64,000 nucleotides of DNA from NCBI GenBank assembly GCA_963666055.2, contig CAXWPH010000015.1, positions 64,001 through 128,000 of the forward strand. Reading direction: 5' to 3'. Both the position numbers and the translations under genes were made by a program. Of the stretch, positions 9,482 to 21,820 are shown one piece after another. Source of the DNA: Acidobacteriota bacterium (lineage in GTDB: Bacteria; Acidobacteriota; UBA890; WLXD01). Numbering within the stretch: the stretch's first letter is position 1; each line of letters opens with the position of its first letter. The notes beneath the pieces are model-generated. The model saw nothing but the letters and a program-made list of their open reading frames with translations, searched no databases and was not told where the DNA came from.

Positions 9482-10153
9482 CTAGAGAAGCCCGCGCTCT
9501 TTGAAGCTCACGAACCCCTCGGCGCCGACCACCAGGTGATCGAGCACGCGAATGCCCAGCAACTCGCCGGCCTGCAGAATCTGCCGGGTGATTCCGACGT
9601 CTTCTCGACTCGGCGTCGGATCACCTGAGGGGTGATTGTGGAACAAGACGAGCGCCGGTGCAGCCGCCAGCAGGCTCTGCCGGAATACCTCACGGGGTCG
9701 AACGACGCTGGCGCTCCATCCGCCGCGTGAAAGCACTCGCTCGCTCAGGAAGCGGTTGCGGCCATCCAGTAGCACCACTCCGAAGCATTCGGCGCGCTCG
9801 CCGCCGTAGCGCGACATCAGATGTCGTCCCAAGTCGCGCGGGCGACGTATGACCAGGCCACGCGAGGGCGCTGGAGCGGCGAGCCGACGCGCCACCTCGA
9901 AGAGGGCGGCCAGGCGCGCCGCCGACGCCACCCCCACTCCGGGCTCCGAGCGCCATTCTTGCGGCTCGCCGCGGGCGAGCTCCCGTAGTCCGCCATGACG
10001 GAGCAGCGATCGCGCCATTGCCGCCGCCGAGCGGTTGCGCTGACCGTGGCCGATCACCAGCGCCAGCAGCTCGACGTCGCTTAGCGCCCCCGCACCGAGC
10101 TGTTCGAGCCGCTCCCGTGGACGGTCTCCGGGGTCGGCGGACGCCGATGGCAC
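9482..10153 (-). CDS. radC: RadC (JAB/MPN domain) protein, full length
   Basis: RPRERL..GAGALSDVELLAL, HhH region, HNHPSGDPTPSREDV, LDHLVVG. Confidence 0.95.
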   Translation of the reverse strand: MPSASADPGDRPRERLEQLGAGALSDVELLALVIGHGQRNRSAAAMARSLLRHGGLRELARGEPQEWRSEPGVGVASAARLAALFEVARRLAAPAPSRGLVIRRPRDLGRHLMSRYGGERAECFGVVLLDGRNRFLSERVLSRGGWSASVVRPREVFRQSLLAAAPALVLFHNHPSGDPTPSREDVGITRQILQAGELLGIRVLDHLVVGAEGFVSFKERGLL

Positions 10154-10328
10154 CTTTGATAGACTTTCTCTTGCAAGCAGCTTTCCCTACCGAGCGACCT
10201 GGCAGCATTTCCGCGGCCTGTGCCGCTACCCTCCACTAGACGGGCACCATGGCCGGCAATCCGACGTACAGGCTGGCCATATCGACTTTTTCGGCCTGCC
10301 GGGCGTCCCATTCTGTGGAGAGACGAGA

Positions 10329-10946
10329 ATGGTAAGGGCCTCTGGAACCTCAATGGCAGCAGCGCCCACAGCTCCCAGTGACGAACAGCTCGTAGCCCGA
10401 TCCGTCGGCGGCGACGTAGGTGCGTTCAACGAGCTCGTTGTGCGCTGGGAGGGGCCACTGTACAAGTTCGTCTACCGTTACCTCGGCGACCCCGAGGAGG
10501 CGCGCGACATCTGCCAGGAGGCCTTCCTGCGGGCCTACTCGAACCTGAGCCGTTTTCGCAGCGAGGCGAAGTTCTCATCGTGGCTGTACCAGATCGCCCT
10601 CAACCAGTGCCGCAGTCAGTTCCGCCGCAAGCAGTCGCGGCCGACGGTGGCGCTGGACGACGACGAGAGCCAGCACCAGCTTGGGCTCGTGCAGGACTCG
10701 GCCGAGGCGCCGGATCGCGAGGCAATGGGGCGCCAGCGATCGAAAGTGCTGAGGGCGGCGATCGCGGAGTTGCCAGAAACGCAACGCGAAGTGATTATCC
10801 TGAAGCAGTATCACGGGCTGAAGTTCCGCGAGATTGCGGAAGTGCTCGGCACACCTGAAAGTACAGTGAAATCCCGGCTCTACCATGGCTTCGAATCGCT
10901 GGCCAAGAGCCTGGGACACCTGAAGACCGAGGGGTTGGAGATATGA
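10329..10946 (+). CDS. ECF sigma-70 factor
   Basis: Region 2 EARDICQEAFLRAY..FSSWLYQIALN; region 4 FREIAEVLGTPESTVKSRL. Confidence 0.93.
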   Translation: MVRASGTSMAAAPTAPSDEQLVARSVGGDVGAFNELVVRWEGPLYKFVYRYLGDPEEARDICQEAFLRAYSNLSRFRSEAKFSSWLYQIALNQCRSQFRRKQSRPTVALDDDESQHQLGLVQDSAEAPDREAMGRQRSKVLRAAIAELPETQREVIILKQYHGLKFREIAEVLGTPESTVKSRLYHGFESLAKSLGHLKTEGLEI

Positions 10947-11812
10947 GCGGCGACCGCGAAGACCTACAGGAGCTACTGGTCGAGCTCGAGTATGGGGAGC
11001 TCGATGCCACAGACCGCGCCGCAGCGCAGGCACGCATCGACGAACACCCCGAACTCGTCCGCATGCAAGCGGCCTTTCGTGCCGTGCGCGAGAACCTGTC
11101 TGCCTGGGACGAGGTGGAAGGGCAGCCGGCCCGAATCGCCTTCGTAACCATGCCAGGCGATGTTCGCCCTGGCTCCATCAACACGTTCGGCTGGATGAAG
11201 GGCGCGGCAATCGCGGCAAGCTTCGTGCTCGGCATCCTGCTGGCCGCGGCGTTTGCCAGCACGAACCTGACACGCACCGACACCGGCTGGACGCTCAGCA
11301 CCGGCCTGTCGCGCAGCGGCGTATCGGCGCCAGTCTCGCAACCGAGCGCCACAACCTCGGTGGGCACCCCCCCAGTCGGCCAGATTCCAGCCGGCCAAAC
11401 GCCCGTCGGTCAGACAGCTATAGGTCGAGTTGCCGGCGGCAGGGCTACCGGCGGCGGGGTTACAGGCGGCCAGGCGCGGCCGTTCCGCATGAGCACAAGC
11501 CAGTTCGGCATCGAGCCCATGCTGGTCGAGGTGCCCGGCGATCGCGAGCTCCAACTTCGGATCCTGGTGCGCCAGATGGTCGCTGCCGCCGAGCAGCGAC
11601 ATCAGCAGCAGACCGACTCGCTACTCACCGACCTGTACCAGACGTTCGATACCCAGCGCACCAGCGATCTGAGCGTTGTCTTCGACGAGCTCGGCTTGCT
11701 GCGTTCTTCCACCGGGCTCGAGCTGCAGCGTACGAATCAGGTCATCGACTTCCTGGTTACCCGGATTGGTAGCGACATCGAGGCACAGGTGCCCGAGCAG
11801 CGCGATGACTAA
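10943..11812 (+). CDS. Putative anti-sigma factor (single TM)
   Basis: ATGA overlap with the sigma gene; N-terminal ASD-like YGELD..; TM AAIAASFVLGILLAAAF; low-complexity linker. Confidence 0.7.
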   Translation: MSGDREDLQELLVELEYGELDATDRAAAQARIDEHPELVRMQAAFRAVRENLSAWDEVEGQPARIAFVTMPGDVRPGSINTFGWMKGAAIAASFVLGILLAAAFASTNLTRTDTGWTLSTGLSRSGVSAPVSQPSATTSVGTPPVGQIPAGQTPVGQTAIGRVAGGRATGGGVTGGQARPFRMSTSQFGIEPMLVEVPGDRELQLRILVRQMVAAAEQRHQQQTDSLLTDLYQTFDTQRTSDLSVVFDELGLLRSSTGLELQRTNQVIDFLVTRIGSDIEAQVPEQRDD

Positions 11813-12929
11813 CGCGATCACCACCAGGCACATCGGCAGGCTGGCGATCGGCGCGGCGGCAGCGCTCTTGCTCGCCGGCGGCAGCTCCTGGGCAGTGCCG
11901 AAAAATGCTGTGCCGGAAAGTGCAGCGTCGGAAGGCGCGGCGCTGGAGGGTCAGGAGTCGCAGCGCCTGCGGCAGCTCGAGGTATTCGAGGGCCTGCTCA
12001 CCGACCTGGTGCAAGAGCGCGTCTCGGCGCAGGTCAACACGACAATTGATCTGGAGCGCAGCGGCGACCCTGACGGCGATGGTGAAGCCAACGTCATCGC
12101 CCTGGAGCCGGTGGTTGTCAAGGTGGGCAGGCCGCTTGCCGCCCACGGCTTTTACCTCGACGGCTACGGCGTGATGTTCTCCATCCAGACGCCGCAGGTG
12201 GCGGTGCTGCCGCGCGCCTTAGATGCGCGGATGGCGGCCCCGATGGCCATCCTGCGCGCCAATATCGGTCCGGGCTTCGATGACTACCCCCTCGCCCCCG
12301 GCTTGATCGACATGCGCGCCGACATGCTCATGCGCTCCGTCGGCGATCTGCGCGTCCTCATGGAGCGCGACGCCCCCGCGATCGACATCGATGCCCTGCA
12401 CGAGCTATCCAGGTTCGAGGACGTGCTGGAGGAGATTCGCGATTCGCTGGCTCCCGACAGCGGAGGTACGGAGGAAGCGGCGCTCGATCGAGAGCAAGAA
12501 ACGATCGCACCGGCGCGGCGCCGGGATGGGGGAGCCTGGGCGCGCCCGCATTGGCGCGACAGCCGCGCCTACTTCCGCGGCGCCATCGAGCAACAGCGCA
12601 CCCTCAAGCAGATCCTCGAGCGCGATCATCAGCAGATCGCCAACGCCGTAAACGACGCCGCCATCGAGGCGCTGGCGCAGTTCGGCACCCTCCTGCGCGG
12701 GCTCGACTCCGACGACCAGGTGTCGATCATGGTGCTGCCGCCAAACCCCTGGATGCTGGCGCGGCGCAACGGCGTGGGCGTGGACCAGGCCGAGTACGTG
12801 ATCTCGATTCGCTACAAGGACATCCGCGACTTCGGCAACGAGAAGATCGACATGGAGAAGTTCCGCGAGCGCATCGAGATCCACAATCGGCTGGGCATCG
12901 AGCTGCCGATCGAAGCCGAGCAGCAGTAG
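11805..12929 (+). CDS. Secreted hypothetical protein, third gene of the ECF operon
   Basis: Signal peptide; overlaps the anti-sigma stop; motif AHGFYLDGYGVMF. Confidence 0.65.
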   Translation: MTNAITTRHIGRLAIGAAAALLLAGGSSWAVPKNAVPESAASEGAALEGQESQRLRQLEVFEGLLTDLVQERVSAQVNTTIDLERSGDPDGDGEANVIALEPVVVKVGRPLAAHGFYLDGYGVMFSIQTPQVAVLPRALDARMAAPMAILRANIGPGFDDYPLAPGLIDMRADMLMRSVGDLRVLMERDAPAIDIDALHELSRFEDVLEEIRDSLAPDSGGTEEAALDREQETIAPARRRDGGAWARPHWRDSRAYFRGAIEQQRTLKQILERDHQQIANAVNDAAIEALAQFGTLLRGLDSDDQVSIMVLPPNPWMLARRNGVGVDQAEYVISIRYKDIRDFGNEKIDMEKFRERIEIHNRLGIELPIEAEQQ

Positions 12930-12975
12930 CACCGACCAGCGAGCCAGGTTTCGCTAGGCCCGACCCGGCGCGGAA

Positions 12976-12984
12976 TGCTATTCT
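12976..12984 (+). promoter_or_regulatory. Possible extended -10 promoter (TGcTATTCT) for ssrA
   Basis: TGn plus TATTCT about 50 bp upstream of the mature tmRNA 5' end. Confidence 0.35.
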
Positions 12985-13032
12985 GGGAGCATCGACTTCG
13001 GATCCGGGTAGTGCCGGAACAGCCGTAGAGTC

Positions 13033-13386
13033 GGGGGCGTCAGGGTTCGACGGGAGCACTGAAGCCGAGGCTGCATGTCGAGCGTTCCACGTATGCTCGT
13101 TAATCCCACGTGGAAACCAACACAACTGCCAACACACCGGTAGCTCTAGCGGCTTAAACACCCGCTAGCGTTCCCCGACCCGGGCCTGCAAGGGTCGGAG
13201 CGAACGCCGTTCAGCAGGCTGGCCGCCCAGTTCCGTTCGGGGGCGAGGCGGCGAGACACTACCCGGACTAGCGTCGTATCAGCTGGCCCGCCGGGTCGAT
13301 ACAGCGTGAAACCTATCGGCGGGATAAGCATGTAGACGCTTCGTGTGGACGGTTTTCGGACGCGGGTTCAATTCCCGCCGCCTCCA
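13033..13386 (+). ncRNA. ssrA: tmRNA (transfer-messenger RNA)
   Basis: 5' GGGGGCG..GGTTCGAC; 3' T-arm GCGGGTTCAATTCCCGC then CGCCTCCA with G3-U70 and A73; tag ORF ANTPVALAA* at 13128-13157; CCA not encoded. Confidence 0.95.
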
Positions 13387-13426
13387 CTTCTATGTTATTG
13401 TGTCTATTGGAGTTACTGGTTACATC

Positions 13427-14524
13427 CTAGCCCGTCTCCACAATGTCTCCAAAACGAGGGCCACTTTTGGGCCCTTCGAGCAGCCTGATTGTCGCGTCTA
13501 TGGCTGCTGGGGACAGGTGCATATAACGCTGCGTCGTGGCCAGGTTGGCGTGCCCAGCGAGCACCTGGATGGCGCGCACCGGCCCACCCTGCATCGACAG
13601 ATGCGAGCAGAATGTGTGTCTGAGGATGTGCACCCCCTCATGCTGCAGGTTGGCGCGACGCGCCGCCCTGCGAACGAGGTTCTGCACCACCTTCTGGGTC
13701 AGCGGGCTTCCGCCGGTCTCGCACAGCACCCGTGCCCCACGCAGGTGACGCAGCGTCCGTAGCGCCTCCTGCAACCTGGTGGTCATCGGGACACGCCGGG
13801 GTCGACCGCTCTTGGGTGCGGTGACCTGGCCCTTCCACTCGGATCGGGCCACACGGAGCTGGCGCTTGCTGAAGTCGACATCCGTCCACTCCAGCGCCAT
13901 CATCTCCCCGCACCGCAGGCCGGCCTCTCCCCCGAGCAACACGATGGCGTGGGCACGCCGGTCAGTTGCCCGAGCCGCCTCGACAAGACGTTCGTACTCG
14001 TCGAAGTCGTGGAACGCCGCTTCCGTCGGTGTCACCGGAAGCAGCCGTACCGTGCACGGCATCGTGTCGATCACGTCCCATTCCACAGCGCATTTCAGCA
14101 GCCGGCTCAGGACCGACAGCACGTTGTTGACCGTCTTGACGGCCCTGGTGCTGAGGCGTTGCTTGAGCCGCTGCACATCTTCGTTGCCGATGGCGTCGAG
14201 CCTGCGCTGCCCAAGCGTCGGAATCAGGTGGATTCGCAGGATCGAATCCTGCGCCGCCTGAGTACTCGGCTTGAGCCGGTTGGCTCGAACGTGGCCATCC
14301 ATGTACCTGGGAGCGAAATGCACCAGTGTCGGCACCTCCTTTGATGGTCTCGGTGGTCCATTGGCCAATAGCTGCCGCTCACGCGCCTGCCCCCAGCGCC
14401 GGGCACCGGATTTCGCGGCGACGGGAGACTTCCTTCGCTCCCGTATTTCCCGGCCATCGTCCATCCGAATGCGGATGTCCACCTCCCAGCCGCCACGTCG
14501 ATAGGGTCGAATCGTTACACTCAT
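13427..14524 (-). CDS. Tyrosine recombinase / integrase
   Basis: Catalytic residues GLRCGE, APK, HILRH, LAGH, TQRY; N-terminal arm-binding-like and SAM-like regions; start overlaps the xis stop. Confidence 0.95.
   Translation of the reverse strand: MSVTIRPYRRGGWEVDIRIRMDDGREIRERRKSPVAAKSGARRWGQARERQLLANGPPRPSKEVPTLVHFAPRYMDGHVRANRLKPSTQAAQDSILRIHLIPTLGQRRLDAIGNEDVQRLKQRLSTRAVKTVNNVLSVLSRLLKCAVEWDVIDTMPCTVRLLPVTPTEAAFHDFDEYERLVEAARATDRRAHAIVLLGGEAGLRCGEMMALEWTDVDFSKRQLRVARSEWKGQVTAPKSGRPRRVPMTTRLQEALRTLRHLRGARVLCETGGSPLTQKVVQNLVRRAARRANLQHEGVHILRHTFCSHLSMQGGPVRAIQVLAGHANLATTQRYMHLSPAAIDATIRLLEGPKSGPRFGDIVETG
13433..13454. repeat. Tandem 11-bp repeats, putative integrase arm-type sites (left)
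   Basis: cgtctccacaa tgtctccaaaa; same motif as 21161-21182. Confidence 0.7.
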
Positions 14525-14805
14525 CAACGCTCCTTTCGCGCTGATGGCGCACGGCTTTCATCGAGCGAGCGTAGCAGGTCTTCGGACCGGACAAGTAAGC
14601 GGCGGCCGATCCGGGTTACGCCGACGAGTTGGCCTCTGCTGGCCATTGCGTAGATCGCCCCTCGGGTGGTGCGGAGAATCTCGGCTACCTCATCGGCGGT
14701 CAGGAGGATCGGGAGTCTGTCACCTGTCGGACCGATCGGTGATCCTTGTTTGGGTTTGACCGAACGGCGGCGGTCGCGAAGTCCTTGAAGTACGCGGTCT
14801 GCCAT
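14524..14805 (-). CDS. Excisionase-like helix-turn-helix (HTH_17) protein; start uncertain
   Basis: LLTADEVAEILRTTRGAIYAMASRGQL..RIGRRLLVRSEDL; translationally coupled to the integrase. Confidence 0.85.
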   Translation of the reverse strand: MADRVLQGLRDRRRSVKPKQGSPIGPTGDRLPILLTADEVAEILRTTRGAIYAMASRGQLVGVTRIGRRLLVRSEDLLRSLDESRAPSARKER

Positions 14806-15110
14806 TTCTCTCACGCGCGCTTTGTCTTCTGGACTGCGGTCGAGCCAAGTGACTTCCGAGCGGCTTGAGCGACCGCCGCCGAAGACACACCCCACCGATT
14901 GCGAACCGCTCGGACTTGTTCGAATTGCATGTCACCTCGCGCGAGTAATCGCTACCGCTGATGCCACTGACGGCTACTACACACCATCGAGGCACACGCC
15001 TGCTGAAGTTATTCATGCCAAGAAAAGCCCACAAATCCTTGTTATTCAATTACTTGAGCCATTCGGAGGGTTCACAACAAGGACAGAATGGACTGCGGAA
15101 ACCCGCTGTC

Positions 15111-15977
15111 TTAGGCGCGAGTCCGCTTGTTTGACCTTCGGAACGCCTTTGCGCACGCTTCGTCGCAGAACCGTCGCCTCGCACGCACGAGCCCGCTCGT
15201 CTCCAGTCGCTCGCCAACGAGAATCGGCGTCCCACACCAAGGGCAGAACCGCCTGTCTCTGCTGATTGTCTTCAAGGCGTTCGAGAAAGGAATTCCACGG
15301 AGCTCTGACTGGATCTGGGCCCGGTCGTTCCACCTGATTCGCATCTCGGACACGCGGTAGAGCTTTAACCGTCGATACTCAGGCAGTGGTTCGGCTGAGC
15401 CGTCCTCCGGGGTGATGTCGGTGTCCGGGGTTACATAGACAGGAATCGATTCGCCGATAATCGGATCGTAAGAATCGAAACGTCGCCACACGCGCCCCTT
15501 GTGCCTCTTGCCGGTCTCGGGGCTTGTCGTTCGTTTGCGATGCATCACACGGAGCGGTGACTCTGTGCGTCGCCTGGCAGCGGCAGCTCGCCGAGCGCGA
15601 ACCTGCCGACCAATCTGATTGATTCGCGCAAGCTCCCGGGATACTGATGGTTGAGACAGGACAAGTTCACTTGCAAGGGACTGTTGCGAAGGTGTCTTCG
15701 ATGGCGGCCGACATTCCACAACGAGCTGGGCCACTCTCCGCTGTCGCTCTGTGAGGCGATACTCCCCATAGAGTCGCAGCCGTTCCGATGCCGCTCGGCG
15801 CTCGCTACCCACTTCTGGATAGCTCCAATCGCGAAGACGCTCATCAGCCTCGAGTGCCGCACGAGCCTCACGCCAGGCGGCTCTCTCAGCCGCGTGTTCG
15901 CGCTGGAAGTGGCCGTCCAAGCTGTGGAAGTCCGCGAACACTTGGCCACAGTCGTGACACACATGCTGTGGTTCCAC
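15111..15977 (-). CDS. Hypothetical nucleic-acid-binding protein: C2H2 zinc finger + HTH + C-terminal C4 zinc finger
   Basis: CHDCGQVFADFHSLDGHFQREH; SQQSLASELVLSQPSVSREL; CPWC...RRRFCDEAC. Confidence 0.7.
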   Translation of the reverse strand: MEPQHVCHDCGQVFADFHSLDGHFQREHAAERAAWREARAALEADERLRDWSYPEVGSERRAASERLRLYGEYRLTERQRRVAQLVVECRPPSKTPSQQSLASELVLSQPSVSRELARINQIGRQVRARRAAAARRRTESPLRVMHRKRTTSPETGKRHKGRVWRRFDSYDPIIGESIPVYVTPDTDITPEDGSAEPLPEYRRLKLYRVSEMRIRWNDRAQIQSELRGIPFSNALKTISRDRRFCPWCGTPILVGERLETSGLVRARRRFCDEACAKAFRRSNKRTRA

Positions 15978-16042
15978 TTAGAGTCACTCCACGAAGGTGC
16001 CTACTATCCGAACAAACGCACTGTACGCCAGCAGGGTGGGCG

Positions 16043-16066
16043 TGACCTGCCCCCCTTTTCTGGTCC
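16043..16066. repeat. Orphan IS3-family terminal inverted repeat
   Basis: tgacctgccccccttttctggtcc resembles the adjacent IS end tgacctgaccccccaaaacggatcc. Confidence 0.55.
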
Positions 16067-17326
16067 TGACCTGACCCCCCAAAACGGATCCAGAGGTAAT
16101 CTCACGATCTGGGTCGAAAAGGGGAGGTCAGAATGCCGACGAAGAGGCACAGCGCCGAGCAGATCGTACGCAAGCTCCGGGAGGCTGAAGTGGAGCTGGC
16201 GCAAGGCGGGACGGTCAAGGATGCCTGCCGCAAGCTAGCGATCACCGAGCACACCTACTATCGGTGGCGGCGGGAGTAGGGGGGGCTGAAGGTCAACCAG
16301 GCCAGAAGGCTCAAGCAGCTGGAGAAAGAAAACGCCCGGCTCAAGAAACTGGTGGCGGAGAAAGAGCTCGACCTGTCGATCCTGAAGGAAGTCGCGGAGG
16401 GAAACTTCTGAGCCCAGCTCGACGGCGCGAGGCGGTGGCGCATGTACGGGGGCGGCTGGGCGTCTCCGAGAGGCGGGCGTGCCGGGTACTGAAACAACCA
16501 CGCACGACACACAGGTACATGCCAACAGAACCGGGCGATGAGCAGATGTTGACGGAGCGGATCGTGGATCTAGCCCGACAATACGGGCGCTACGGGTATC
16601 GGCGAGTGACGGCGTTGTTGCGTATGGAGGGCTGGTGGGTGAACCACAAACGAGTGCAGCGTATCTGGAGGCGTGAGGGGCTGAAAGTACCGACAAAGCA
16701 GCCCAAACGAGCCCGGCTGTGGCTCAGCGATGGCTCGTGCATCCGGCTGCGACCACAGCGCAAAGATCACGTCTGGGCGTATGACTTCGTCCATCACCGG
16801 ACGCACGAGGGTCGGGCTATGAGGCTGCTGACGATCGTCGATGAGTACACACGAGAAAGCCTGGCGATCGACGTGGCACGGAAGCTCAACTGTGAGGACG
16901 TGCTCGAGCGGCTCGGGTGGTTGTTCGTGCACCGGGGCATACCTGAGCACATCCGGTCCGATAACGGACCGGAGTTCACCGCCGAGGCGGTTCGCGACTG
17001 GCTCGGTAGGCTCGGTGTGGGCACGCTGTTCATCGAGCCGGGCTCGCCGTGGGAGAACGGCTACGTGGAGAGCTTCAACGGCAAGCTCCGAGACGAGCTG
17101 CTCAACGGCGAGATCTTCTACACGCTCAAGGAGGCAAAGGTTCTGATCGAGAGATGGAGGCAGCAGTACAACCGCATGCGACCGCACAGCTCGTTGGGCT
17201 ACCGACCACCGGCCCCGGAGGCGCTGTTGTTGAAGCCGGCTACGCTCCGCTTCGCCGGCCTCAACAACCCCTTGTCAGCACCGAGTTACTGAGATAAGAC
17301 GTGGTACTAACCGTGGGGTCAGGTCA
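16067..17326 (+). mobile_element. IS3-family (IS407-group-like) insertion sequence
   Basis: Ends TGACCTGACCCC (16067) and GGGGTCAGGTCA (17326); orfA/orfB with G GGA AAC -1 slip site near 16399; no clear target duplication. Confidence 0.9.
16133..17292 (+). pseudogene. IS3-family transposase orfAB with nonsense mutation in orfA
   Basis: orfA 16133-16411 has an in-frame TAG at 16277 where EYGGLK is expected; orfB is intact with DDE motifs (WAYDF, RSDNG, VESFNG). Confidence 0.85.
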
Positions 17327-17479
17327 CCCTCGAGCAATCCCGAACAGCGTCCACGCCAAGATCTGATTGTCATCGATGTCACCCGTGTGGTCGTCGAAGT
17401 GACACCTGTGGCTAAGTTTCCACGGGGCGCGAGCTCGACTGGCGATGTCGATGTGACCTTGCCCCGCTTTCCCGGACAC

Positions 17480-18764
17480 TTAGTTAAGATCCATTGTCGT
17501 AGTCGTATTAGCGGCTGTGGGAGCTGTTGGCAACGCGGAGCGTTGTCCAAGCGACGGTGGAAATCGGGAGTCGATTTCCACGGGCGCGTCAGCTTCCACA
17601 GCTGATTGGCCGCTCTGGCCTGGCCGCCGCATTGCCGCCTCCAACTGAGCCGGACTCTGGTCTCCGATCGAGGTGTGCATGCGAGCCCGGTTGTAGAACA
17701 CTTCGATGTAGTGGAACAACTCGGCTCGGGCCGCCGCCCGGGAACTGAAGCAGCCACCGAGTTCGAACTTCAGGGTAGAGAAGAAACTCTCCATCGGCGC
17801 GTTATCCCAGCAGTCTCCTTTCCTGCTCATGCTGATGGTGAAGCCACGGTCACGCAGCTTGTCTAGGTAATCGTCGCTGCTGTACTGGCTGCCGCGGTCG
17901 CTGTGATGGAGCACTCCGGAACCGGGACGGCGTTGCTCCAAGGACTGATCCAGGACCGCCAGCGTCAAATCGTCCGTCATCGTCTCGCTCACCGCCCAGC
18001 CGATGATCCGTCGCGAGCACAGATCCATCAGCACGGCCAGGTATAGCCATCCTTCCTGCGTCCACAGGTATGTCAGGTCGCCCACCCAGACGCTGTCCAC
18101 GGCATCCACCGTGAAGCGCCGTGCCAGCACGTTGGGCGCCGCTGACCGCCCAGGTGTGGGCCGTGTTGTCACCCGGAACCGACGGGGTTGGCGAGCTCGA
18201 AGTCCTTCCTGGCGCATCAGCCGAGCTACCCGCTTGCGAGAGCAGCGGATCCCTCGTTGCCGAAGTTGCTTGTGGATGCGCGGACTTCCGTAACGGTCGC
18301 GGCTCTCTCGGAATGCAGCTCTGATCTGCACACGTAGACGGCGATCTTCTCGCGCTCTCGGGCTCGGCCCCCTTCCTCGCCACTCGTAGTAACCGCCGTG
18401 AGACACCTCGAGCATCTTGCACAACCGCCGCACCGGGAACTTGCCGGACAGTTGCTTGATGATCGGGTACTTCATCGCGGGCGTTCCGAGAAGATCGCCA
18501 ACGCTTTTTTAGAATGTCGCGCTCCTGCCGTACTCGCCGCAGGTCCCGCCGTAGCTGTTGCCCGTCCAGGTCCTGGTCGGGCATCTTCCCCGCGCCCGGA
18601 AACGCCGTGACCCCCTGCTCCTGGAGCTGTTTGCGCCACTTGGTCAACATGCCGCGGCCAACACCCAGATCCCGGGCCACCTCAGACACCGGATGGCCCA
18701 GCTGCGTCACCATCCTCACTGCCTCAATCTTGAACTCGCGACTGTACCGCCGTCGTGACCCCAT
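17480..18764 (-). pseudogene. IS3-family transposase orfAB, orfA apparently frameshifted at the A-run
   Basis: orfA RRYSREFKIEAV..ERDILKK; the A6G at 18504-18510 needs one more A to read KKALAIFSERPR* and couple to orfB (WVGDLTY, HHSDRGSQY, MESFF). Confidence 0.75.
17514..17602. repeat. Structured palindromic element inside the IS 3' end
   Basis: Outer IR gctgtgggagctg/cagcttccacagc enclosing two hairpins (ttggcaacgc..gcgttgtccaa; gtggaaatcg..cgatttccac). Confidence 0.7.
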
Positions 18765-18913
18765 GCTTCACCTCCGAGCCCATTATCGGGCTTCCAAAGG
18801 TGTCCGGGAAATCGGGGAGGCCCACCTTAGGGGCCGGTGGGCTTGAGCTCGGGGGTTATGATGGATGGCTCTTTCGCGACGACGACGCAGGTCCGTGAAC
18901 TTCAGGAGAGCCC

Positions 18914-20167
18914 ATGCTTGAAGAGAGTCACCACTACTTCAACAAGGCGGCCGATTTGCTCGGCCTCTCCGAAAGGGTCCGCAAGATCCTGATTACTCCA
19001 CGCCGGGTGGTCAAGGTAGAGATCGTAATCGAAAGTGACGGCGGCCAACTACTCCACTTCCTCGGGTTTCGGGTGCAACACAGCAACACTCGCGGGCCCT
19101 ATAAGGGGGGCTTGCGGTACCACCCCGCGCTGGACGAGAACCATGCGGCGGCTCTGGCCAATCTGATGACCTGGAAGACCGCCATCGCCAATGTGCCATT
19201 CGGGGGTGCTAAGGGGGGTATCGACTGCGACCCGGCGCAGCTTTCGAAGTCCGAACTTGATCGCGTCACTCGTGCCTTCGTGGGTCAGATCAAGGAGGTA
19301 ATTGGCCCGAACTTGGATGTCCCCGCGCCTGACGTCAACACAAATGCTGAAGTGATGGCGTGGATCATGGACGAGTATTCGAAATACGAGGGTTTCTCAC
19401 CTGGGGTGGTCACGGGGAAGCCGGTTCATCTGTTCGGATCGGCAGGCCGGGAGGAAGCTACCGGACGTGGCTTGTTGTACGTCCTGGAGGAGGCACTCGG
19501 CGATCACGACCTGCCACTAGCAGGTCGAACCATCGCGCTACAGGGATTTGGAAACGTGGGCAGTAACGCAGCCCGGCTCATTGCCGAAAAAGGGGGGAGG
19601 ATCGTGGCAGTAGCCGACCATGCCGGAGCCGTCCACAATCTCGATGGGCTCGACGTGTCGGCTCTGGCGGATTGGGTCAAGGAGCATGGGACCGTTCACG
19701 GCTTTCCGCGTGGCGATGCCTTCGACGGCACCGAGATCATCACCTGGCCGGCGGAGATCCTGATCCCTGCGGCTCTCGAGAACATGATCACAGCGGACAA
19801 CGCCAAGGACGTTCAGGCCAGGATCGTGATCGAAGGAGCCAATGGCCCCACTACTCCCCAGGCCCACGAGATTCTTTTGGAACGTGGCGTCACGGTAGTG
19901 CCGGACATCCTCGCCAACTGCGGTGGCGTTACCGTCAGTTACTTCGAATGGGCTCAGAACGTCCAGCGATTCAGCTGGGAATACGACCGAGTGGTTAAGG
20001 AACTTGAGAAGGTCATGCGGCGAGCCTACCGGGCGGTCAGGAGTCTTGCACAGAAAAAGAATGTCGACCTGCGAACGGCTGCTTTTGCATTGGCGATTCA
20101 ACGAGTGGGCAGGGCGGCTGCCTCTCGCACGACAATGCGAGAAGAGATCGGCTTCCAAGATTCTTGA
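18914..20167 (+). CDS. gdhA: Glu/Leu/Phe/Val dehydrogenase, most likely glutamate dehydrogenase
   Basis: GPYKGGLRY, MTWK, GGAKGG, PAPDVNT, VVTGKP, EATGRG, QGFGNVG, EGANGP, GGVTVSYFEW; AGGAG RBS. Confidence 0.9.
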   Translation: MLEESHHYFNKAADLLGLSERVRKILITPRRVVKVEIVIESDGGQLLHFLGFRVQHSNTRGPYKGGLRYHPALDENHAAALANLMTWKTAIANVPFGGAKGGIDCDPAQLSKSELDRVTRAFVGQIKEVIGPNLDVPAPDVNTNAEVMAWIMDEYSKYEGFSPGVVTGKPVHLFGSAGREEATGRGLLYVLEEALGDHDLPLAGRTIALQGFGNVGSNAARLIAEKGGRIVAVADHAGAVHNLDGLDVSALADWVKEHGTVHGFPRGDAFDGTEIITWPAEILIPAALENMITADNAKDVQARIVIEGANGPTTPQAHEILLERGVTVVPDILANCGGVTVSYFEWAQNVQRFSWEYDRVVKELEKVMRRAYRAVRSLAQKKNVDLRTAAFALAIQRVGRAAASRTTMREEIGFQDS

Positions 20168-20237
20168 CGCCATGACGGGCGACGACCGCGACCTGCGTGC
20201 ACGAGGACCCGGCCACGGAGGACGAGAGGGTGGAGCG

Positions 20238-20849
20238 GTGAGTGGTTGGATTATCTGGTTCGAACGAGTTGTGATTTTCGCCGTCTCCGCATCTGTGATC
20301 GAGTTCACGGTGAGCACGATGCCAGTCGGAGAATCGGCACCGCTATTACGCATGACGGCTGCTGTGTTGCGGGTTTGGTTCGTGATCGAGTACGCGCTGC
20401 GCATCGTGATGAGCAGTAGGAAGTGGCGCTACGTAGTGAGCGTAGCTGGCGTGGCAGATCTTCTTGCCGTGGTGCTCGACGCAGGGGTGCTGAAGCTGCT
20501 GCGCCTGCTGAAGCTCACGTCGAGGGCAACAGCGCTCAACCGATTGAAACGAGGTGTCTTCGCAGTGCGCCACGAACTCGCTGCCGCCGCGGGGGGTACT
20601 GGCATGCTGCTCTACGTCTCAGCTGTCGCTCTGTACTACGCCGAACGCGACGTGCAACCAGACACCTTCGGCTCCATTCCGGCCGCGCTGTGGTGGTCCG
20701 TTATCACTTTGACGACGGTCGGATACGGAGACGTGACCCCAGTAACACCGGCAGGACGGGTGCTCACGGGAATCGTCGTCCTGCTCGGGATTGGCGTTGT
20801 CGCCGTTCCTACCGGTCTGATCGCGTCGGGACTGTCGAGAGACGCGTAG
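20238..20849 (+). CDS. Voltage-gated-type potassium channel (start 20172 or 20238)
   Basis: Selectivity filter TTVGYGD, WWSVIT pore helix, S4-like LKLLRLLKL. Confidence 0.88.
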   Translation: MSGWIIWFERVVIFAVSASVIEFTVSTMPVGESAPLLRMTAAVLRVWFVIEYALRIVMSSRKWRYVVSVAGVADLLAVVLDAGVLKLLRLLKLTSRATALNRLKRGVFAVRHELAAAAGGTGMLLYVSAVALYYAERDVQPDTFGSIPAALWWSVITLTTVGYGDVTPVTPAGRVLTGIVVLLGIGVVAVPTGLIASGLSRDA

Positions 20850-21160
20850 CCGGCTAGTGGAGGGCGGGGAGGTGCAGTGATGCTGGGCCAACGCCGCTTA
20901 GTCGCCAGTCTCACTAACTGTAGTAGATTGAGTCGCCTTCCTCAGTGTGCGCGACTGGCGGCACGGTTCCCCGCGTCGTGTTTGCGCCGGTTTGAATCCC
21001 ATTTCCCCGTTCAACACCCGGCGCGGAACCCCGAGCGCACCGTCGCTCCTAGGCACAGTACGCTCAGCATTATCTGCAATGATGGATGGTCGCCCACGAT
21101 AAGCACCTCCACCGATCTCAATATCCCGGTGGCTCTACGCTGCCGCGAGTTCAACATGGT

Positions 21161-21230
21161 CGTCTCCAAAACGTCTCCAAAACCCGGGTGCACTCCAGTA
21201 GATTCCAGTCGACTGGAGTCGACTCCCTGA
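21161..21230. repeat. Putative att arm: two 11-bp arm-type repeats followed by four 10-bp-period repeats
   Basis: cgtctccaaaa x2 (21161-21182); cactccagta gattccagtc gactggagtc gactccctga (21191-21230). Confidence 0.65.
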
Positions 21231-21337
21231 GTCGCCGTAAACGGATACCTGTCAACGAGAAACGGCGAAAGCCGCGCGCCATCAACCACTTAGAGGAATC
21301 CGTTACAGCGGGTTCAATTCCCGCCGCCTCTTTCGGG

Positions 21338-21820
21338 TCATTCCATGCGTAGCGAGAGCGCCAGCAGGACGGCCGCGACGAACGGAGCGATCGTGCGTAC
21401 GTGGTTCATCCTCACCCACTCCTGCAGATATGTCGCCCAGTAGGCGACTCCCTCCGCAGAGTTCGGATCCATAGCCTCCAGGATGTCGTTACGGGGAACG
21501 TGGTAGCCGACCGTGACCAACAGCACGCCGACGATGTACAGGGCGCCGGCGATCAACTGGTATCTGGACCCAGGGTGCTGAAGGTGCATCGCCGCGTAGA
21601 TCATGAGAACGAGACAGGCGGTGCCCGTGCCGAACAGCAGCAGCATGAAGGGCAGCGTCGGCGCTTCCTTGTTGATCGCCTGCATGGCAGCAGCCCCTTG
21701 CTCCGGGGCGAGGCGCTTGAGCCCCGCCATGGTGAACGTCGAGAAGGTAAAGAACGCCCCGGCCGCGGTGGCCGCGCCAACGGCGCAGATGATCGTCATG
21801 GTTTGAGCGAAGGAGCTCAT
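21338..21820 (-). CDS. DUF1772 / anthrone oxygenase family membrane protein
   Basis: GAFFTFSTFTMAGL, AMQAIN, VPRN, YWATYLQEWVRMNHVRT. Confidence 0.85.
   Translation of the reverse strand: MSSFAQTMTIICAVGAATAAGAFFTFSTFTMAGLKRLAPEQGAAAMQAINKEAPTLPFMLLLFGTGTACLVLMIYAAMHLQHPGSRYQLIAGALYIVGVLLVTVGYHVPRNDILEAMDPNSAEGVAYWATYLQEWVRMNHVRTIAPFVAAVLLALSLRME

Follow-up and report, generated by a model that had tools for sequence, protein, structure and literature searches.

The DNA analyzed here is a 64,000-nucleotide (nt) stretch of an Acidobacteriota genome (contig CAXWPH010000015.1, positions 64,001 to 128,000; hereafter, the window), and our subject is the open reading frame (ORF) at 15111 to 15977 on its minus strand, which encodes a 288-amino-acid (aa) protein with a classical C2H2 zinc finger, a predicted helix-turn-helix (HTH), a predicted beta hairpin, and a C-terminal four-cysteine (C4) module. 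By sequence comparison, the finger, HTH, and hairpin appear to be a single inherited unit, seen twice and both times upstream of an excisionase-integrase (xis-int) gene pair. The protein as a whole appears to be a mosaic with an exchangeable C-terminal zinc module, because its finger and HTH go with one relative (P0005) and its C4 part with three other proteins. The ORF is probably a gene of a small integrative element, and we put the chances at about even that its product is a DNA-binding, element-encoded regulator of the xis-int excision genes of the island in which it lies.

A finger-HTH unit in two integrative elements

The ORF and its modules are as follows.

15111..15977, minus strand: finger/HTH ORF of 288 aa, with C2H2 finger, HTH, basic linker, YDP hairpin motif, and C-terminal C4 module
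15894..15959, minus strand: C2H2 motif C-x2-C-x3-F-x5-L-x2-H-x4-H, aa 7 to 28, with C7, C10, H23, and H28 as candidate zinc ligands; acidic; positions -1/2/3/6 are D/H/S/G
15822..15893, minus strand: long helix continuing from the finger, aa 29 to 52 (AlphaFold2 model); candidate pairing helix
15621..15755, minus strand: predicted sigma4/LuxR-like HTH, aa 75 to 119 (weak matches; aligned to the HTH_38-like segment of P0005)
15495..15611, minus strand: Arg/Lys-rich linker, aa 123 to 161 (from sequence)
15450..15494, minus strand: R-x2-R-x-D-x-Y-D-P-x2-G-E motif, aa 162 to 176, predicted beta hairpin, common to P0005 and P0003
15123..15344, minus strand: C-terminal module, aa 212 to 285 (C245, C248, C271, and C275), treble-clef-like; C4 core at 15153 to 15245

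An initial annotation of the window had described the finger motif (15894 to 15959), an HTH-like segment, an Arg/Lys-rich linker, and a C4 motif, and all of these are present, with the finger at residues 7 to 28, the HTH-like segment at aa 75 to 119, and the C4 pattern as C245-x2-C248...C271-x3-C275. The frame has 288 open codons. Its GTG start immediately follows a TAA in the same frame and is preceded by GGAG at a distance of 9 nt; the frame was stop-free in 2 of 20,000 base shuffles, and its product is found in public collections as a predicted protein in a cluster of 1. The overlapping frames 15545 to 15964 (minus) and 15651 to 16238 (plus) were rejected as real genes, as neither has a Pfam match and the latter extends into insertion sequence (IS) DNA. 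When the strict C2H2 pattern, with H-x3-5-H permitted, was run through all six frames of the 5.7-Mb genome, this was the sole match in 11,454,510 residues, where residue frequencies predict 0.019 matches per genome and 0.0002 per window. The spacing C-x2-4-C-x12-H-x3-5-H, together with the core F and L, is present both here and in P0005. In profile scans with curated libraries, no module of the protein attained its Pfam cutoff: zf-C2H2 (PF00096) scored 18.5 bits over aa 1 to 40 against a gathering cutoff of 25.2, and HTH_Crp_2 scored 15.5 bits against 27.

The PF00096 profile matched 1 of 301 genomes of the phylum, and this match is P0005, encoded in a genome of the same order (G020; source label, Acidobacteriota), with a score of 26.4 in the genome scan and 22 as a whole protein. 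In P0005, a finger of identical spacing and ligands is followed by an HTH (weak HTH_38 match, E = 1e-4) and then by an R..D.YDP..GE motif, which is also found in P0003. The residues kept are C, C, F, L, H, and H of the finger, the HTH start TxRQ..V, the helix pair L-A..S..RE, and YDP..GE, and the two proteins are 28% identical over aa 7 to 176 (pairwise E = 1e-8). Thus, all four Cys/His ligands, on whose conservation the initial annotation had staked its reading, are retained. Because P0005 had been picked by its finger, the fingers were removed from both proteins before their similarity was evaluated by shuffling; the remaining score of 72 compares with a shuffle mean of 36.3 and was reached by 0 of 2,000 shuffles, while the YDP motif by itself gave a weaker result (36 of 2,000). 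As a control, five other finger-motif frames of the phylum showed no such similarity, with 29 to 317 of 500 shuffles reaching their score; these frames came from a PF13894 scan that yielded six matches in 5 of 401 genomes, none above the cutoff and one at a locus without a motif frame. The two proteins part company at their C termini, where P0005 has a different Cys/His module (C-x2-C...H). Its finger has 1 basic and 7 acidic residues, with E/G/E/T at positions -1/2/3/6, the conventional numbering of the C2H2 recognition helix.

P0005 lies in a compact integrative element (L048, G020:C200, 130 to 5762) whose genes form a row on one strand, namely, a small tyrosine recombinase, P0005, XRE HTH, an unknown ORF, DnaB-N-like, DUF3987, HTH_17, and integrase. 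The integrase of this element resembles that of the island over a 102-aa stretch at 33% identity only, so the position ahead of xis-int recurs in a distinct element.

Predicted structure and a mosaic C terminus

AlphaFold2 run on an alignment of three sequences gave a mean predicted local distance difference test score (pLDDT) of 55.8, with a finger hairpin plus a helix at aa 17 to 52 (block pLDDT, 62 to 78; hairpin and helix of the finger itself, 70 to 78), a helical bundle at aa 54 to 139 (blocks, 51 to 80), and most of aa 138 to 266 below 50. Within the bundle, the HTH helices are modeled at aa 77 to 88, 98 to 105, and 109 to 139 (block pLDDT, 62 to 80), whereas the strands of the YDP motif (aa 165 to 171 and 176 to 182) fall below 50. 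The linker region (aa 123 to 170) has 17 K/R residues versus 3 D/E. The C4 region was modeled at pLDDT 46 to 71, its profile matches in the Protein Data Bank (PDB) being at E = 0.15 or worse. The finger and the following helix together recovered weak matches to FOXP-CC, which we take to be a finger-plus-coiled-coil dimerization unit, in both the 288-aa protein and P0005 (E = 0.043 and 0.055). The solved sequences nearest to a profile of the two fingers are eukaryotic or designed C2H2 fingers (2i13, 1mey, ZBTB17, and ZFY).

The HTH resembles the tetra-helical HTHs of sigma-70 region 4 and the LuxR-GerE type in its helix pattern, with weak profile and structure matches over aa 46 to 119. Its best NCBIfam match is TIGR02937 (sigma70-ECF [extracytoplasmic function]; profile positions 96 to 157 of 165; E = 0.0025), and the top Foldseek rows comprise WhiA, sigma region 4 domains, LuxR-type regulators, and KorA from the PDB, all weak, and phage sigma-like and HTH proteins from the viral library. 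One could therefore envisage a sigma-region-4-like factor or an anti-sigma/appropriator protein, whose HTH would read a -35-like site or dock on RNA polymerase while the zinc modules contacted the polymerase or a partner. In its favor are the TIGR02937 profile, as the best family match of the HTH, and the sigma region 4 structures and phage sigma factors among the top rows (3hug, 4g8x, and 6onu; S5MMM6, E = 0.037), but we consider this unlikely. The TIGR02937 score is 17.5 bits against a cutoff of 42.9, and nothing resembling sigma region 2 matched, so that assignment as an ECF/sigma-70 factor, which calls for regions 2 and 4, was rejected; nor is there a receiver domain of the LuxR kind, and the scores for both families are far below their cutoffs. 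Moreover, LuxR-type, KorA, and MarR-type HTHs score about equally, and so the sigma matches name a fold and not a function.

The C4 module has a different set of relatives. Among 1.84 billion protein representatives scanned with HMMER, three proteins were recovered, namely, the 288-aa protein itself, P0003 (E = 2.5e-13 over query aa 145 to 282), and P0004 (E = 6.6e-4 over query aa 213 to 285), the latter two without a finger. P0003 is a metagenome protein in which an MshEN-like domain (the N-terminal domain of type II secretion ATPases) precedes the shared hairpin and C4 parts. In P0004, an HTH_11-like segment is present, but its similarity to the HTH discussed here is not significant, with 570 of 2,000 shuffles reaching the score once the C4 part is left out. 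The third relative, in a genome of another class (G754), is a stand-alone 123-aa version of the C-terminal module (E = 2.1e-12; L066:1456-1827, G754:C30); it was the one real hit among the 3 of 401 genomes of that class matched by a four-sequence profile, the other two being GntR-like. Its gene adjoins a convergent two-gene pair that we take to be a HicA/HicB-like toxin-antitoxin system. The four cysteines of the CxxC...CxxxC pattern are invariant in all four aligned sequences. The initial annotation had proposed a three-module regulator; as a unit this does not hold, for the modules are not conserved together, and in all of the searches performed here the full three-module form was found in this protein only.

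The searches for further relatives were broad. A word-indexed search of 5.8 billion clusters, which did not extend to longer fused forms, returned the protein itself only; the three-sequence profile recovered from the same clusters the protein itself and P0004. Of 299 shorter candidates, none was a relative. The HMMER scan missed P0005, so more distant members of the family probably exist unseen. Across 401 genomes of the phylum, the C4 profile matched the protein's own genome only, and the two-sequence finger-HTH profile matched 16 at E = 0.01, of which two are the model's own, without yielding a third member. Seven of the 15 other loci matched by the latter profile were read and rejected as off-frame matches or generic HTH regulators, presumably of the LuxR/NarL, GntR, ArsR, and MarR types. 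No confirmed relative was found in viral contigs with the finger-HTH profile, P0005, P0003, or P0004, and of the 4 viral, 1 genome, and 19 metagenome loci matched by the C4 profile, the 15 translated had generic CxxC/CxxC..FC patterns or were off frame, with no finger or HTH, and were likewise set aside. Queries of the ESM Atlas gave best scores of 0.85 and 0.88, which are leads only. The initial annotation had asked whether the protein might match a well-known phage regulator family over its full length; no such match was recovered from Pfam, NCBIfam, PADLOC, or PHROG, the top hit in the latter covering 40 aa at E = 0.0064. Neither the protein nor P0005 had a tblastn match among 50,697 records of phages and 72,556 of plasmids. 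In the literature, most subscription papers being out of reach, we found no paper describing this finger-HTH-C4 architecture and none on tmRNA integrative elements of Acidobacteria.

The island and the proposed control of xis-int

The ORF sits in a 7.9-kb island integrated in the transfer-messenger RNA (tmRNA) gene, with an exact 23-nt copy of the tmRNA 3' end at either border. The features of the island are as follows.

13033..13387, plus strand: tmRNA gene, the integration site
13362..13384, plus strand: left attachment core (attL), 23-nt exact repeat with attR
13427..14527, minus strand: tyrosine integrase (PF00589, E = 2.7e-30)
14524..14805, minus strand: xis, an excisionase-type HTH_17 gene of 93 aa if read from the ATG at 14805, a start picked from the sequence (PF12728, E = 2.3e-10; PHROG excisionase matches)
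14806..15110, minus strand: gap of 305 nt separating xis from the ORF, a candidate promoter/operator region
15978..16042, minus strand: 65 nt, including GGAG, the sole native DNA remaining 5' of the start codon
16043..16066, no strand assigned: 24-nt end of a multicopy IS, broken by the next IS; the same 24 nt occur at four other genome sites
16067..17326, plus strand: IS3-family element, multicopy in the genome
17454..18824, minus strand: second IS3-family element, multicopy in the genome
18914..20849, plus strand: island cargo, overlapping glutamate dehydrogenase-like and small potassium-channel-like genes, both below equivalog cutoffs
21308..21330, plus strand: right attachment core (attR)

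Read from the tmRNA, the order is thus integrase, xis, the 305-nt gap, and the finger ORF (all three genes on the minus strand), followed by two IS3 elements and cargo. The features of a tmRNA integrative element are all present, namely, an integrase adjoining the target gene, an xis, and a duplicated 3' end of the target, and arm-type GTCTCCA repeats occur at 13434/13445 and 21162/21173. The ORF points in the same direction as xis and int, the gap after it contains no terminator-like site, and so the ORF stands at the head of the xis-int row, the same position that P0005 occupies in an element with an unrelated integrase. Because this position recurs in two elements, we take the element's own xis-int transcription as the probable target of the protein; the initial annotation had asserted control of xis-int outright, which is not supported as stated, its basis being position.

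In the mechanism that we favor, the sigma4/LuxR-like HTH and the basic linker would bind an operator carried by the element, for which the 305-nt gap is the most plausible place. The effect would preferably be activation of xis transcription, in the manner of FseA on the rdfS promoter (see below), with repression as another possibility; in G020, the target of P0005 might include transcription of the XRE-replication genes. The finger, being single and acidic, would together with its long C-terminal helix extension fold or dimerize the N terminus instead of reading bases, and the C-terminal zinc module could serve as an exchangeable accessory making a second nucleic acid or protein contact.

That the finger is a structural or pairing module rather than a DNA reader seems likely from its residues. 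It has 1 basic versus 4 acidic residues and is single, lacking a tandem array or TGEKP-type linker, so the tandem mode of base reading does not apply. The view of it as a eukaryote-style DNA reader, implied by the initial annotation, fares poorly, as the finger is acidic, has no basic residue at -1/2/3/6, and is not part of an array. Given two acidic fingers with no basic residue at the DNA-reading positions, the HTH is the likely DNA binder. The finger might nonetheless read DNA by itself, as a single eukaryote-type finger aided by flanking basic residues in the fashion of GAGA or AFV1p06. Its exact classical spacing, the eukaryotic and designed nature of all of its nearest solved sequences, the basic residues just N-terminal of the finger in P0005, and the DNA binding reported for a single archaeal-virus finger (PMC3541406) speak for this. 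We nevertheless judge it very improbable, as both fingers are net acidic, neither has Arg, Lys, Asn, or Gln at -1, 2, 3, or 6, these positions differ between the two, and there is no array or linker.

The protein might alternatively be a replication or recombination accessory, i.e., an architectural protein that binds an origin or the att arms and aids circle replication or Xis/Int. Library scans revealed no recognizable replication gene in the island, the protein offers several possible DNA contacts, and the neighbors of P0005 include a second tyrosine recombinase and the DnaB-N/DUF3987 pair. However, that pair apparently provides replication functions for the G020 element, which would not require P0005 as a Rep; none of the libraries scanned revealed a nuclease, primase, or helicase motif, and close relatives of the island integrase occur without a finger gene. 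We therefore hold such a role to be distinctly unlikely.

Several observations weigh against the protein being a regulator of xis-int. Close relatives of the island integrase are found in 7 of 61 genomes, its own included, and the DNA upstream of xis could be read in four of them (G002, G003, G033, and G051; integrases 62 to 85% identical); in these four, DNA similarity ends within xis or before, and other genes fill the slot, so integrases of this family can do without the finger protein. The island and the G020 element were found to share neither similar DNA nor an operator, and the 305-nt gap has no clear palindrome. Our data contain just two finger-HTH sequences, one of them, P0005, picked by its finger, so that n = 2 for the conservation of the ligands. 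No HTH profile match of the protein attains its cutoff, Foldseek gave no match at E = 0.001 in the PDB and viral library, and AlphaFold2 with a single sequence gave a mean pLDDT of 44, with the finger lacking its hairpin at a pLDDT near 40. The codon score of the ORF is weak; at -0.080, it is marginally the best of the six frames and well below the host training set (0.25 +/- 0.06), with adjoining xis at -0.024 and int at 0.094. Finally, just 65 nt of native DNA are left upstream of the ORF.

Two sister islands have integrases 84 to 85% identical to that of the island but different genes ahead of xis. In G003 (L012:12223-13775), these are an ORF of 271 aa and unknown function, an XRE HTH, and an ORF of 70 aa; in G002 (L013:11908-13682), they are an exonuclease-endonuclease-phosphatase-like ORF and a GIY-YIG-like ORF.

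The loss of upstream DNA has a clear source, as the first IS3 element (16067 to 17326) has inserted next to the ORF, on its upstream side, into the last 24 nt of a third IS that is likewise multicopy. These insertions leave 65 nt of native upstream DNA, and this copy of the gene may thus be silent. Taken further, the ORF could be an unexpressed leftover of a decaying island, separated from its promoter by the nested IS insertions, with three ISs represented directly upstream (two of the IS3 family and one by its end only), the XRE-to-replication block of G020 missing, a weak codon score, and several relic att arms elsewhere in the genome. We think this quite improbable, as the frame, int, xis, and both att cores are intact. 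In addition, a contig of public run X4 is identical over 13358 to 16093, and a contig of run X8, from another study (depth, 2.2), matches 15322 to 16066 with 15 other letters and no gap and continues for 542 further letters absent from the window. Furthermore, IS ends can provide promoters. Public sequencing runs of two studies contain at least half of the window, one of them perhaps being its source, and runs of a third contain part of it; no RNA run was listed among them, which speaks neither for nor against expression. Between 14500 and 16200, no sigma-70 consensus promoter was found, and of two terminator-like sites neither is inside the ORF-xis gap. The gap itself contains TGAATAAC twice, 33 nt apart, and has no repeat of at least 11 nt, one 8-nt direct repeat pair, and short inverted pairs.

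Returning to the regulator of xis-int, a bolder version of it, which we regard as doubtful, would have the protein belong to a modular family of Acidobacteriota integrative-element switches, in which the finger and helix act as a zinc-dependent dimerization or partner module on a sigma4-like DNA-binding head, with exchangeable C-terminal zinc modules determining a second contact. If this is true, excision would be controlled by a finger used like some eukaryotic protein interaction fingers. A finger-HTH protein of a bacterial mobile element offers a small, testable case of the role of a lone finger in a prokaryote, which bears on the origin of the eukaryotic finger and on whether it started out as a protein-pairing or a DNA-reading unit. 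In addition, small integrative elements of a group that cannot be cultured would gain a candidate switch. Its weight is limited by there being two finger-HTH sequences, by the possible silence of this copy, and by the regulatory role being deduced from sequence.

Known systems and further observations

The 288-aa protein is best read as an unusual variant of element-encoded HTH regulators, a kind that is already known. Its closest functional analogue may be FseA (DUF6499 plus DUF2285) of ICEMlSym, which activates the rdfS excisionase promoter, being likewise an element-encoded two-domain HTH protein that switches on a recombination directionality factor (PMC10359603). The 288-aa protein has no DUF2285 or DUF6499 match at E values up to 1, FseA as described in that account has no zinc fingers, and the island, in contrast to ICEMlSym, has no conjugation or quorum-sensing genes.

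With the classical TFIIIA/Kruppel fingers (PF00096 clan; e.g., the H-x4-H fingers of ZFY, 7znf and 5znf), the finger shares C-x2-C-x12-H-x4-H and the F and L, with a beta-beta-alpha form predicted in the three-sequence model but not in the single-sequence one; it differs in being single, without a TGEKP-type linker, below the cutoff, acidic on its face, and fused to a bacterial-type HTH. DNA-binding C2H2 proteins usually employ tandem fingers that contact DNA via helix positions -1, 2, 3, and 6 (PMC4330361). AFV1p06 and other archaeal-virus fingers are likewise single classical fingers in prokaryotic mobile elements, with a regulator there proposed to need other modules or partners; AFV1p06, however, is a 59-aa protein with a basic helix face that binds DNA alone, whereas the 288-aa protein is bacterial and has its own HTH and a second zinc module, the likeness noted here being at the level of the motif (PMC3541406). 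The archaeal Tn7 TniQ arrays are another instance of classical fingers co-opted by a prokaryotic mobile element, but these are tandem target selectors in archaea, with none reported in thousands of bacterial TniQs (bioRxiv 10.1101/2025.07.27.667033), and the 288-aa protein has no TniQ domain. The bacterial Cys2His2 site of Ros/MucR (PF05443) has a 9-residue spacer, C-X2-C-X3-F-X2-L-X2-H-X3-H-H, within a larger domain (PMC9779718), as against 12 residues here. The distinction from this type drawn by the initial annotation is borne out, PF05443 having 0 matches in the protein's own genome (G000).

The statement that classical C2H2 fingers are uncommon in bacteria stands as to rarity, with PF00096 matching 1 of the 301 phylum genomes, but they are not unknown there. 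A 2013 count from UniProt gave 489 bacterial examples, about 0.003% of genes (PMC3541406); a later source terms them nearly absent from bacteria (bioRxiv 2025.07.27.667033), and a C2H2-like gene is labeled in the legend to a figure of integrative elements from Frankia (PMC3218068). In the ESM Atlas, zf-C2H2 members occur in clusters from bacteria and phages, including a cluster of 665 proteins of which 35% carry PF00096. In one family of the phylum, we noted a conserved, unrelated protein of about 139 aa with two repeats of CxxC plus a C2H2-like finger (C-x2-C-x3-F...W.GI..HW.A.H), at four loci (L072, L073, L076, and L077, from G558 twice, G519, and G455) and apparently outside mobile elements.

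The C4 module shares C-x2-C ... R-x-F-C-x3-C followed by a basic helix with zf-FCS (PF06467), DUF2116 (PF09889), and phrog_6504, a pattern common in small phage and mobile-element proteins. It differs from zf-FCS and DUF2116 in a longer loop and in a preceding helix pair common only to P0003, P0004, and the G754 protein, and its scores are below the cutoffs (15.7 versus 22.4 bits for zf-FCS and 12.4 versus 26.8 for DUF2116).

Elsewhere in the island, the best profiles for the glutamate dehydrogenase-like cargo gene are archaeal GdhA/GdhB, below the cutoff, and an Rfam scan of 12900 to 21500 found the tmRNA only. An 18-nt motif of the attR arm (21267 to 21284) has an inverted copy, differing at one position, near the end of the xis coding sequence (14542 to 14559), and the motif is also present at six other genome sites; it could be a site for Xis or a host factor or a chance match. 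Copies of the island's att arm also lie elsewhere in the genome (G000), at C2:344309-344503, C2:346675-346839, C5:98846-98976, C8:36498-36606, C8:59893-60001, C13:40622-40753, C15:1360078-1360185, and C15:1362442-1362512. Several of these end in the tmRNA 3' core, with no close integrase nearby in the tblastn list, and they are likely relic or nonautonomous islands once moved by this integrase family. To the left of the tmRNA (9482 to 12929) lie host genes that, judging by their translations, encode a RadC-like protein, a sigma factor of the ECF type, and what is likely its anti-sigma counterpart.

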